From positions 26,651 through 90,650 of the forward strand of contig CAWGUE010000026.1 in assembly GCA_963825595.1 (NCBI GenBank): DNA of 64,000 nt, given 5' to 3'. The translations under genes and the position numbers were made by a program. The notes beneath the pieces were generated by a model. The model did no database searches. It saw only the letters and a program-made list of their open reading frames with translations, and was not told the origin of the DNA. The DNA comes from an uncultured delta proteobacterium (GTDB taxonomy: Bacteria > Desulfobacterota > Desulfobacteria > Desulfobacterales > SG8-13). Positions 36,117 through 38,603 of this stretch are shown piece after piece. Positions within the stretch are counted from its first letter, which is position 1. Each line of letters opens with the position of its first letter.

Positions 36117-36668
36117 TCAAGGCAGAAACAACTGCAATTCCCTCAAACCCATGGTTCCGGCCGACGCGATGATTCTCTGTGAGTATCGGCCGCACTCGAT
36201 GATTCTCGCTGTTTTTTTTTCACAAACCGCCGCGGAAAAACGGCCGCTTAGAAAGAGGATCCTCGGGAACAGAAGCGCGTTGATGAACGGCAGGCCGCTG
36301 TCCCGGCAGAATCCGCTGCCGCGGCCATCGTCGATAATGATAAAATCGGCCCGTCCTTCTTTAAAACAAGCGATGGTATCCCGCTCTCCCGGGTCAAGGA
36401 GCTGCAAACGCATAGCGCGCGGACTGCGCGTCGCGGTTCGCCCGTCGCAAGACATGATAGTGATGGCCCGCCGGCGCCCCATATCTCTAAAGAATTCCGA
36501 TCCGGGGTATCCGCTGCGGGTCACTTCCGAGAGGACCGAAGCCGTCATCAGGAGGCGGTAGGTCTGAGCCAGCCGCCCGAACAACCCTGCCTTGAAGAGA
36601 ATAATGGCTGATGAGGCATCGACGATCGCTCGCTTACGATTGTTGTCGTTCTTCTGAAAAATGTCCAT
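36117..36668 (-). CDS. PIN-domain-like protein (DUF3368-like)
   Basis: IVDASS, VLSEV, LDPGE and IIDD acidic pattern of PIN folds. Confidence 0.7.
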   Translation of the reverse strand: MDIFQKNDNNRKRAIVDASSAIILFKAGLFGRLAQTYRLLMTASVLSEVTRSGYPGSEFFRDMGRRRAITIMSCDGRTATRSPRAMRLQLLDPGERDTIACFKEGRADFIIIDDGRGSGFCRDSGLPFINALLFPRILFLSGRFSAAVCEKKTARIIECGRYSQRIIASAGTMGLRELQLFLP

Positions 36669-36714
36669 GCAAAGATGGCGATAGGGTAACCACCGCGGCA
36701 TTTTTTATCAAGTT

Positions 36715-36863
36715 GAAAAATATTCATGAAATATGCGGGTGAGAGACCCAGAGTGGTGACAGAGCGTGATCATCGATCGAGCCGTACCGGAAGAGTCGAA
36801 TCAGGGGCGTTCTATCCCGCACAATTTACGATGCGGGAAAATATTCATGCTGTATGCGGGATA
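36715..36863. repeat. Short direct/inverted repeats AAAATATTCATGnnnTATGCGGG
   Basis: Copies at 36715-36739 and 36837-36860; TATCCCGCA 36813 is inverted to TGCGGGATA 36855. Confidence 0.6.
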
Positions 36864-36992
36864 AAATATGAGCCCCTGAAGTTCTGAGAACTCCAGGGGC
36901 TTTTAAAGGAGGAGTCACCCCGAGGTTCACCACGCCTCGGAGTTTGTCTGATGAAGTTGCCGACACCGGGTTGGTTGGCGTGGCAGCTTGAT
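36862..36992 (-). ncRNA. Candidate sigma54-dependent sRNA 2 (about 130 nt)
   Basis: Hairpin CTCCGAGG..CCTCGGGG, then ACTCCTCCTTTAAAA anti-SD tract, then terminator-like stem AGCCCCTGGAGTT..AACTTCAGGGGCT; no ORF. Confidence 0.65.
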
Positions 36993-37001
36993 TTCTGGTA
37001 T

Positions 37002-37017
37002 TTCAATTTTCATGCCA
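37002..37017 (-). promoter_or_regulatory. Sigma54-type promoter
   Basis: TGGCATGAAAATTGAA (GG-N10-GA; one mismatch at -12). Confidence 0.65.
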
Positions 37018-37040
37018 AACCGACCTTAAAATTGCATTTT

Positions 37041-37053
37041 TAATTCGTTGATA
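37041..37053 (-). promoter_or_regulatory. IHF binding site
   Basis: TATCAACGAATTA matches WATCAANNNNTTR, with adjacent A-tract, between enhancer and promoter. Confidence 0.65.
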
Positions 37054-37096
37054 TGATTGGTTTTTTATTTAAGGCGGGCAAAGACCGCCGCAAACT

Positions 37097-37133
37097 TGCC
37101 AAAACGCGTCAGAATACCTGACCAAAATTGTCA
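37097..37133. promoter_or_regulatory. Paired TG(A/C)C-N7-GTCA boxes (putative enhancer)
   Basis: TGCCAAAACGCGTCA 37097 and TGACCAAAATTGTCA 37119, 22 bp apart. Confidence 0.65.
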
Positions 37134-37404
37134 CCTGTAGATCTGAAACGGCCGTTGAATCCGACAAATGGGATCCGTCGTCCCTGAACAGCAAAACCGA
37201 TTTCTGATGGCCGTAAGATCATCCGGCCGACCGGATTGTTGGCGTCAAAGAACCGGACCGCCCTGCCGGACCCTCAAGGTATCGCCCCCGTATCTAAGCC
37301 GTTTTTTCCTTTTATTTCACCCGTGATTATGTAAAAACAGGGGTGACGATCCCCTTAACGACCGATCGTCGCCCCTAAAAACCTGCGCCAGGAATGCTAA
37401 GTAG

Positions 37405-37598
37405 TGCCCATCCACGAAAAGTGGATGGCACCATTAAGTGTCCAATTCATAAATGAGATTTTTTTTCGCTGGGCAAGACCGCATCCCGCCTCGGCGGGAT
37501 TTGCGGCGAGGCGTACTTTATGTACGCCGCAGCCGGAAACCTGCGGAGAATCCCGCCTGGCGGGACCCAGCGGAAAAAAGGCCATTTATGGGTGGACA
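37405..37598 (+). mobile_element. MITE-like element, copy 1
   Basis: Ends TGCCCATCCAC/ATGGGTGGACA; flanks CTAAGTAG/CTAAGTAA; similar to 48100 and 61707. Confidence 0.85.
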
Positions 37599-37625: not shown

Positions 37626-38603
37626 ATGGGCAAGGCAAGCGCGATTGTTATGGCCGGCTACAATAACAAATGGGTCGTTCGGAAATATGCCAAAATCGTC
37701 GCCGAACACTACGGTGAGACATTCATCGAAACCGGATACAAGCCGTTACGGGAATTCGAAGTCATCGAAAACGATCGACCGGTTAAAAAACCGCTGATTC
37801 AATTCACTCTGGAGCAGCTTTTGCAGTGCGATCGTATCGGGGACATTACCATCGTCGGTCATCAAATGTTGCTGGAGCAGCGTCTCAGAGATTTTCTCAA
37901 CCAGTCCGGCAGGCCATATCGAATTATCAACCAGAACACCCACATTCCGGCCGATGTCATCGAGGCCTTTCATATTCGGCCCCGCAAGGTTAGTCACAAC
38001 TCCATCGCCGGAAATATGATCAAGGGTTATGCGGCCAGCGCCGCCAGCGAACAGCAGCGACACGCTCTGTTCGTGGCATCGGACTCGCCGTTGACCGCCA
38101 GCAGTTTTATCGATTACTTTCTGGATCTCTCCGAAAAATTCGCCCAGGACTATACCATTATTCTCCCGGCAGTATTGATCGAAGGCGTCACGGACAATTT
38201 TGGGCGCTATCCCATGAAACTCATCAACGACTCTGAAATTCAACTGTCTGACAAAACCGACGCCCATGGTCGGCAGGGTTTTCGCCTCTCTTCTCTGATG
38301 TATGCCAATCCGTACGGATTCGACATCAACACGGCCAATACCGCTTACAATCTACGCAAGTGCCTGAATCCCAAGGTGCAGCTAAAATTGTTCAGGATCA
38401 CGCGGGATCTGGGGTACAAAAATGTCTACTCCAAGCATTTTATCCAAAAGGATCTAAGTCTGAAAGAAGTCGAGAATATAACCTCGGCCTTTTTCGACGG
38501 GCGCCTGAAGATAATTCCGGTACAGGAGGTGGCCACGAGCTACGATTATGACGGTACGGACGACGAATACAGGCGGCTGGCTGAAATCCTCAGAAAAGTT
38601 TGA
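37626..38603 (+). CDS. Hypothetical protein, probable GT-A/NTP-transferase-like fold
   Basis: AIVMAG, KPLIQFTLE.L, VASDSPL and C-terminal DYD; start moved downstream of the repeat (AAGGAGG RBS). Confidence 0.65.
   Translation: MGKASAIVMAGYNNKWVVRKYAKIVAEHYGETFIETGYKPLREFEVIENDRPVKKPLIQFTLEQLLQCDRIGDITIVGHQMLLEQRLRDFLNQSGRPYRIINQNTHIPADVIEAFHIRPRKVSHNSIAGNMIKGYAASAASEQQRHALFVASDSPLTASSFIDYFLDLSEKFAQDYTIILPAVLIEGVTDNFGRYPMKLINDSEIQLSDKTDAHGRQGFRLSSLMYANPYGFDINTANTAYNLRKCLNPKVQLKLFRITRDLGYKNVYSKHFIQKDLSLKEVENITSAFFDGRLKIIPVQEVATSYDYDGTDDEYRRLAEILRKV

Follow-up and report, generated by a model that had tools for sequence, protein, structure and literature searches.

The element upstream of the PIN-like gene

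The window, by which is meant the whole stretch of 64,000 nucleotides that was analysed, comes from the genome of an uncultured delta proteobacterium (Desulfobacterales; contig CAWGUE010000026.1). Its minus strand carries a gene for a PIN-domain (DUF3368-like) protein, which has no Pfam or NCBIfam match, and a divergent NTP-transferase-like gene with a weak MobA-like match lies on the plus strand at 37626-38603. The intergenic region that precedes the PIN gene contains, as judged from its sequence, a conserved non-coding element of three hairpins (SL1, SL2 and SL3) with a sigma-54-type promoter, and it is likely to be transcribed as a separate small RNA with a predicted length of ~130 nt (Table 1); the promoter and both ends of the RNA in the window are predictions. 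An inverted repeat (36860-36815, minus strand) sits directly 3' of the RNA and a direct repeat, CCCGCA...ATGAATATTTT, occupies 36739-36715 of the same strand; neither is present in genome G002 or metagenome contig L220.

Table 1. Features of the RNA locus and of the neighbouring PIN gene in the window.
Feature	Position	Strand	Basis or remark
Distal enhancer site, TGAC-N7-GTCA, predicted bEBP site	37119..37133	-	Tandem motif conservation
Proximal enhancer site, TGAC-N7-GGCA, predicted bEBP site	37097..37111	-	Motif
IHF consensus site, TATCAACGAATTA	37041..37053	-	13/13 match
Sigma-54-type -24/-12 promoter, TTGGCAT-N5-TTGA	37003..37018	-	In all 30 members (part of extraction pattern)
Predicted sRNA, about 130 nt	36862..36991	-	Start from promoter spacing, end from U-rich tail
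SL1, 5' hairpin	36954..36989	-	Sequence and length variable across family
Possible second seed CUUCAUCAG, complement of AUG plus Lys codon	36948..36956	-	UUCAU spacing in f1/f85; weak gain over shuffles
SL2, 8-bp stem and 9-nt loop, CTCCGAGG-N9-CCTCGGGG	36918..36942	-	Loop sequence not conserved
Open anti-Shine-Dalgarno linker ACTCCTCCTTTAAA (also given as CUCCUCCUUU), core CCUCCUUU	36902..36915	-	Core is genome's 16S rRNA 3' tail
SL3, GC-rich 3' hairpin, terminator-like in window, then CATATTTTAT	36871..36901	-	Terminator scan and covariation
U-rich tail, 6/10 U	36861..36870	-	At least 5 U at that place in only 4/30 members
Likely sigma-70 promoter of PIN gene, TTGATA-N17-TACCCT	36683..36711	-	Found by eye; not reported by scanner
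PIN-domain (DUF3368-like) gene, neighbour only	36117..36668	-	Atlas feature match 0.96 to DUF3368 clusters

The features named in the preliminary description (promoter, 5' hairpin, the SL2 sequence, linker and IHF site) were all recovered in place on the minus strand. The region from 36995 to 36855 folds at -53.3 kcal/mol (z = -4.48), a stability equalled by none of 200 shuffled sequences, and covariance model R2, whose training set includes the window, scores the RNA at 115.6 bits. The GC-rich 3' stem, described at first as 13 bp long, is present but differs in length: the terminator scan, which calls SL3 and its tail terminator-like in the window, gives it 14 pairs and a 3-nt loop, whilst the conserved core consists of 10 pairs and a 9-nt loop. 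The CU tract had been proposed to be exposed, and the folds agree, with a mean unpaired probability for CCUCCUUU of 0.88 in the window and of 0.88-0.95 in each of the four folds with SL3 included. In sequence, this core is identical to the tail at the 3' end of 16S rRNA in the same genome, GGATCACCTCCTTTCT.

The plus-strand AAGGAGGA had been dismissed as a ribosome-binding site, and it is indeed unusable as one, since the first ATG is reached only 46 nt further on. A product of the plus strand, namely a short ORF from 36951 with its Shine–Dalgarno sequence (SD) brought near by SL2, or else a DNA feature that is never transcribed, is extremely improbable: AAAGGAGG and a conserved ATGAA could be joined by SL2, and the ORF reaches 30 codons in the window, but among the members it has 30, 12, 40, 11 or fewer than 8 codons, shares no common sequence and extends into the promoter, and the G-U pairs, the promoter and the U-tail all fit the minus strand.

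Distribution and conservation of the predicted RNA

The family comprises 30 members, found in 29 genomes and on one metagenome contig (L220), which are spread over four families of a single order of sulfate-reducer-type bacteria: f1 (14 of 20 genomes), f85 (2 of 2), f11 (4 of 12) and f29 (9 of 12), plus L220. Eleven members are close relatives within one genus. BLAST over 61 relatives returned one clear homologue and one weak colinear one, and a search of 141 genomes with covariance model R1 brought in another 11 from the window's genus, in which the RNA occupies a different locus, together with members from two further families. A strict promoter-linker-stem pattern matched 18 of the 401 genomes of the order, 17 of which are real (reversed control, 0/401); the remaining match, G274 (L296), has no SL3 and was rejected. 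Three further members were found by reading upstream of a neighbouring orphan protein rather than through the motif. Loose scans gave one member among the 119 stretches listed for named genomes, and two among 80 metagenome stretches, L220 and L169, the latter near-identical to the window and left uncounted; L056, from the named collection, is likewise a member that was not counted separately. No further members were found in the other genomes of the 141 sampled from the class or in 99 sampled from the phylum, sets that are samples in which no more than about 20 candidates from each genome were scored by the model searches, and model R2 gave a score to none of six viral stretches and one G004 match (0/7). 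The RNA was not found in the f1 genomes G004, G007, G014, G016, G017 and G019, which are 70-95% complete and five of which were also checked with the pattern. Weak model matches in other families (L272, L274, L276, L278, L287-L295) were excluded, the promoter or SL2 being absent. In f51 genomes (L276, L278, L288, L291) there are repeated elements that end in CCTCCTTTT or a similar sequence, a GC hairpin and a U-tail, with no sigma-54 promoter; these are possibly another anti-SD sRNA family.

The stems covary. Across 17 sequences, 97.4% of the cells of SL2 and SL3 are paired and six pairs have changed on both sides, a score reached by 0/500 shuffles in a test that the kinship of the members inflates; controls slid along the alignment paired only 32-70%. 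Taken singly, SL2 is 94.9% paired in the 17 sequences, with both-sided changes in four of its eight pairs, and SL3 is 99.0% paired in all 30, with both-sided changes in six of ten. SL1 and both loops vary whilst the linker stays constant, and in G047 the 5' part of the RNA holds about 100 extra bases. The core CCUCCUUU lies between SL2 and SL3 in every member, including the three found through the neighbouring protein, an invariance that is partly by construction because the core was part of the search patterns. The hairpin of SL2 ends 0-3 nt before the linker in 30/30 folds, and the base that follows the core, C, is common with the 16S tail in 25/30. The linker is unpaired at a probability of at least 0.7 in 21/30 members and of 0.37-0.65 in the other nine, mostly f29. 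UUCAU stands 41-48 nt upstream of the core in 17/17 members of f1 and f85, and at that distance in 0/13 others. No conserved ORF was found on either strand across the members. Only 4/30 have the U-tail, a genuine weak point for the idea of a discrete 3' end in lineages other than the window's.

Taken together, the element is very probably a real non-coding RNA gene family. It is also a new one: Rfam 15 gave no match at the gathering threshold in the whole window, and five member loci searched at E up to 10 gave only terminator-like matches below threshold (His leader, 23.7/49 bits; anti-hemB, 20.9/49.5; Spot 42, 19.9/80). A literature search returned no sRNA from this order, though a homologue may be listed among the sRNAs in supplements to transcriptome papers on Desulfobacterota. 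Assembled contigs from four runs, three of them metatranscriptomes and the fourth of a kind not on record, contain parts of the stretch. One contig of run X1 spans 36457-37134, enhancer included, at a flat depth of 5.4 like that of its flanks, so that the RNA is not separable there from a DNA signal; in runs X2 and X3 the RNA is barely covered, and the contigs show neither strand, ends nor level. The high contig depth at 37456-37585 is explained by a palindromic MITE/REP-like repeat at that place, which has 74 BLAST matches in the genome.

Promoter, activators and neighbouring genes

Nine promoter columns are invariant in the 17-sequence alignment. The -12 element of the window's copy is TTGA, not TTGC, and its promoter 16-mer recurs upstream of a sigma-54 regulator gene in the flagellar cluster of the genome. 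A consensus IHF site had been placed between enhancer and promoter, and it stands: the site matches at all 13 positions what we take to be the IHF consensus, and perfect matches are rare in controls, at 0/2000 for random genomic 60-mers and 0.45% when the 60-mer containing the site was shuffled 2000 times. Eight of the 30 members carry the site with at most one mismatch. Genes of the IHF/HU family are present in the genome, none scoring above the himA cut-off.

Two types of enhancer are found in the family. Tandem TGAC-N7-GKCA sites are spaced by 22 bp in the window's genome (G000), G002, L220 and G103, and by 21 bp in G158. A GTCA-N6-TGAC box is carried by 25/30 members (24 by extraction, and G273 by reading) and fits the FleQ box of Pseudomonas aeruginosa, described as GTCAAT-NN-ATTGAC (PMC10723142). 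In the window's genome this box occurs at 5/132 intergenic sigma-54-like sites against a background of 0.5%, and three of those five lie in the flagellar cluster; most members are therefore likely to be under the flagellar master regulator, and the window's copy, as its motifs suggest, is likely to answer to another activator. The flagellar link is not universal, since FlgB was not found in G103 or G158 and the enhancer of the window is of the other type. No activator of the window's copy could be singled out among 51 genomic matches to the sigma-54 activator domain, and for the regulator encoded in the flagellar cluster, FleQ (E 1.5e-85) is no closer a match than ZraR or NifA. Regulators of Desulfovibrio are the subject of a separate study (PMC3333781).

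The tandem motif also stands upstream of other sigma-54 promoters, including those of a second conserved ncRNA candidate and of a small protein gene. The ncRNA candidate, of about 225 nt (G000:C13:143121 onward, plus strand), has a sigma-54 promoter, the same tandem enhancer and a U-tailed terminator; it is present in G000, G002, G003, G103 and G158 (L409, L410, L412, L430), with no Rfam match on three loci. The small protein, of 67 aa and containing cysteine, lies behind the same enhancer in f85 (L419, L416) and has a homologue, 48% identical, in G000 (C15, near 147400). On the minus strand of the window, from about 31356 to 30870, a further promoter of the sigma-54 type is accompanied by an array of TGAC/GTCA half-sites; about 440 nt past it come CCTCCTTTT, a hairpin, a U-tail and then an acidic ORF of 65 codons (30794-30597), all in single copy in the genome, and this is possibly a further sRNA.

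The preliminary description also offered the RNA as an attenuating leader for the downstream PIN-like and HD genes, a reading that we consider very improbable. The PIN gene does follow on the same strand, 190 nt downstream, the imperfect U-tail would allow some readthrough, and in GYNNKW-linked f1 loci an HD gene is located two genes downstream. The check on synteny nevertheless went against it: the PIN gene adjoins the RNA in only 3/30 members, behind a spacer of ~150 to 420 nt that is variable in sequence, and it likely has a separate promoter, with sigma-70-like elements found before it in G002 and L220 too. SL3 forms with a probability of 0.997-0.9997 at all four transcript lengths that contain it, no alternative antiterminator fold was seen when the RNA-PIN leader was folded at successive transcript lengths, and a conserved leader peptide and a constant downstream gene, which a transcription attenuator would also need, are missing as well.

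Downstream of the RNA there may be a PIN gene, DUF362, DUF401, a convergent Dus gene or, in 15 members, an orphan gene of 61-63 aa; the neighbours in the loci that were read are NTP-transferase-like, PIN, CDP-alcohol transferase, DUF401, Dus and orphan genes. The orphan family has 80 homologues and occurs in 21/401 genomes, always behind a sigma-54 promoter (e.g. L302:1701-1892). Its protein gives a confident alpha/beta model (pLDDT 89), with no Pfam match and no Foldseek match under E 0.001 (best Z 5.0). In f11 and f29 a conserved hairpin RNA candidate follows 3' of the orphan gene, with a U-tailed terminator and a promoter, TAAAG-N14-CCGATA, of what we take to be the sigma-28 type (L299, L300-L303, L305-L307, L271, L315, L325-L329, L332, L333); it was not found in G000, and three of its loci had no Rfam match.

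The orphan gene gives rise to a second reading in cis, in which the anti-SD tract sequesters the SD of a co-transcribed orphan gene and the window's copy is a remnant or has become trans-acting secondarily. We regard this as distinctly unlikely for the family. The gene does lie at a fixed 92-104 nt 3' of the RNA in the 15 members, none of which has a U-tail, the linker is predicted to pair with its SD at more than 0.5 in seven of them, and several f29 genomes show an 8-bp match of UCCUUUCA with UGAAAGGA. In the other eight, however, the pairing stays below 0.4, and f1 retains the RNA in 14 genomes, at two different loci and with compensatory changes, although the gene was found in 0/13 f1 genomes searched. 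The gene in turn manages alone: 15 of the 21 orphan-gene loci have the RNA, and six have promoter and gene only. With each occurring without the other, and with such different genes downstream, the RNA is a separable module with no fixed downstream gene; these comparisons favour action in trans, with a dual role possible in those lineages in which pairing in cis is predicted.

Proposed mode of action and relation to known small RNAs

The main proposal of the preliminary description, an independent sRNA with an exposed anti-SD tract that acts in trans, thus finds support in the 30 homologues, the covarying stems, the open linker, the unlike downstream genes and the absence of a conserved ORF. 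On balance it is probable that the predicted RNA represses translation in trans, its open CCUCCUUU linker pairing with AAAGGAGG ribosome-binding sites, and that it does so without Hfq, which was not found in 5/5 genomes tested. Activation of the sigma-54 polymerase would come from an enhancer-binding protein that occupies the tandem TGAC-N7-GKCA sites, helped by IHF bending of the DNA; in most other members the FleQ-type GTCA-N6-TGAC box, a mark of flagellar sigma-54 promoters in the window's genome, would take the place of the tandem sites. SL2 and SL3 would keep the linker open and protect the RNA, and the linker would compete with the 30S subunit for ribosome-binding sites.

For target prediction the core was co-folded with each of 5062 putative start regions from a simple in-house gene caller, which places some starts wrongly and so affects the target ranks. 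Many of the top matches pair the linker with the SD and UUCAUC with AUG-AA whilst SL2 stays folded, a two-part form taken by 80 of the 436 AGGAGG sites. Signal peptides are encoded, as judged by a crude rule, in 12 of the top 20 targets, against 12% overall and 5/20 when ranked by 16S pairing alone. Several top-predicted targets, among them those with start regions at G000 C10:218850, C10:111901, C17:12849 and C9:45077, are mRNAs of solute-binding proteins, the best of them an AapJ-like gene at rank 2 of 5062, which with the cognate RNAs falls in the top 3% of 436 AGGAGG sites in 5/7 genomes, one of these being the genome in which it was selected. A LivJ-like gene reaches the top 2% in 2/6 genomes and a NifS-like gene 4% in 1/2, and a DctP-like gene has too few orthologues for comparison. 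Repression in trans fits the comparative data as far as an sRNA with an open anti-SD is concerned, but the one comparative test of a target was negative: the AapJ-like gene pairs at a mean of -15.7 kcal/mol in 12 genomes with the RNA and of -15.9 in 19 in which none was detected. The second seed, CUUCAUCAG, is barely better than its shuffles, with 25 strong targets against 11-26 (one of eight shuffles higher). Flagellar genes are not predicted targets, the best rank in the main flagellar cluster being 564 of 5062 (flgM itself was not located). The SD of the divergent NTP-transferase-like gene, AAGGAGGAG, is complementary to the linker in the window's genome, a match not seen conserved in G002.

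The missing target-specific signal in the comparison for the AapJ-like gene bears on another reading, in which the RNA does not act on chosen mRNAs but is a decoy that mimics the 3' end of 16S rRNA (a hairpin followed by CCUCCUUUC) and so titrates some protein whose role is to bind or cleave it. The identity of the core with the 16S tail, the shared C that follows it, a sequence conservation of SL3 beyond the needs of a plain terminator and the mostly missing U-tail would all suit such a decoy, which we judge unlikely. Any anti-SD seed, however, necessarily resembles the 16S tail, the SL2 loop, as would-be mimic of the helix-45 loop, is not conserved, and no gene for an RNA-binding partner travels with the RNA, the orphan protein being missing in f1 and having no informative fold match.

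Translational repression in trans would place the RNA beside several described sRNAs. CJnc230/FlmE of Campylobacter jejuni is described as an RpoN-dependent translational repressor with two stems around a single-stranded anti-SD (PMC11187230). The architecture of the window RNA is the same; FlmE is, however, cut from the flgE transcript, whereas the window RNA has its own promoter and enhancer, has no predicted flagellar target and was compared with FlmE in sequence only through Rfam. In none of the loci read does flgE lie upstream of the RNA on its strand. The csRNAs of Streptococcus, which depend on CiaR, are reported to carry anti-SD as well as anti-start-codon (CAU) motifs in unpaired regions (PMC3091779); motifs of both kinds and control by a signalling regulator are shared, but both motifs lie in one unpaired stretch there and are split by SL2 here, with the anti-AUG motif confined to f1/f85 and a promoter of the sigma-54 type. 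Rhizobial alpha-r14/NfeR1 (cuckoo), whose confirmed targets include periplasmic ABC transporter components, is similar in its length of about 120 nt, three hairpins, anti-SD seed and independence of Hfq, but has CCUCCUCCC in each of the three hairpins and, as there described, no sigma-54 signature, whereas the window RNA has one CCUCCUUU in its linker (PMC10746234). Pxr of Myxococcus is likewise an RNA of three stem-loops with a conserved SL3 stem, has a predicted sigma-54 promoter preceded by an enhancer and belongs to a host that lacks Hfq, but its gene lies directly downstream of the activator gene pxrR, its SL1 and SL2 are conserved and it needs the loop of SL1, the hairpin that is variable in the window's family (PMC5684412). 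Among the loci read, none has an activator gene next to the RNA, and there was no Rfam match to Pxr. By analogy the window RNA would thus work like FlmE, the csRNAs and NfeR1, and it resembles Pxr in the type of its promoter and in having a host without Hfq; it departs from the defining features of each of these families. It does have what is expected of a trans-acting sRNA in general, namely its own (predicted) promoter and a non-coding sequence of conserved structure.

A more speculative extension concerns f1 and f85, in which the UUCAUC tract 5' of SL2 might also pair with AUG-AA, SL2 being looped out, and such pairing would favour mRNAs of exported proteins, e.g. solute-binding proteins. 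As a tentative and rather doubtful scheme, this split seed would act as a clamp that grips SD and start codon with SL2 looped into a three-way junction, damping strongly translated signal-peptide mRNAs (AAAGGAGG...AUGAA) without Hfq; the RNA would be a mobile module rewired between the FleQ-type flagellar enhancer (25/30) and a second activator, coupled in f11/f29 to the orphan mini-protein and the sigma-28 sRNA, and would form an independently evolved sRNA layer on the decision between motility and uptake in uncultured sulfate reducers.

Occlusion of the SD by an anti-SD sequence is already a well-known mechanism, so that the surprise is moderate, and it is the split seed, if confirmed, that would be the unusual part. 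If real, the family would provide a defined and testable set of riboregulators in Hfq-less sulfate reducers of sediments, would show how an sRNA gene can come or go as a module that sits between promoter and mini-gene, and would point to a small sigma-54 regulon that is rich in non-coding RNAs.
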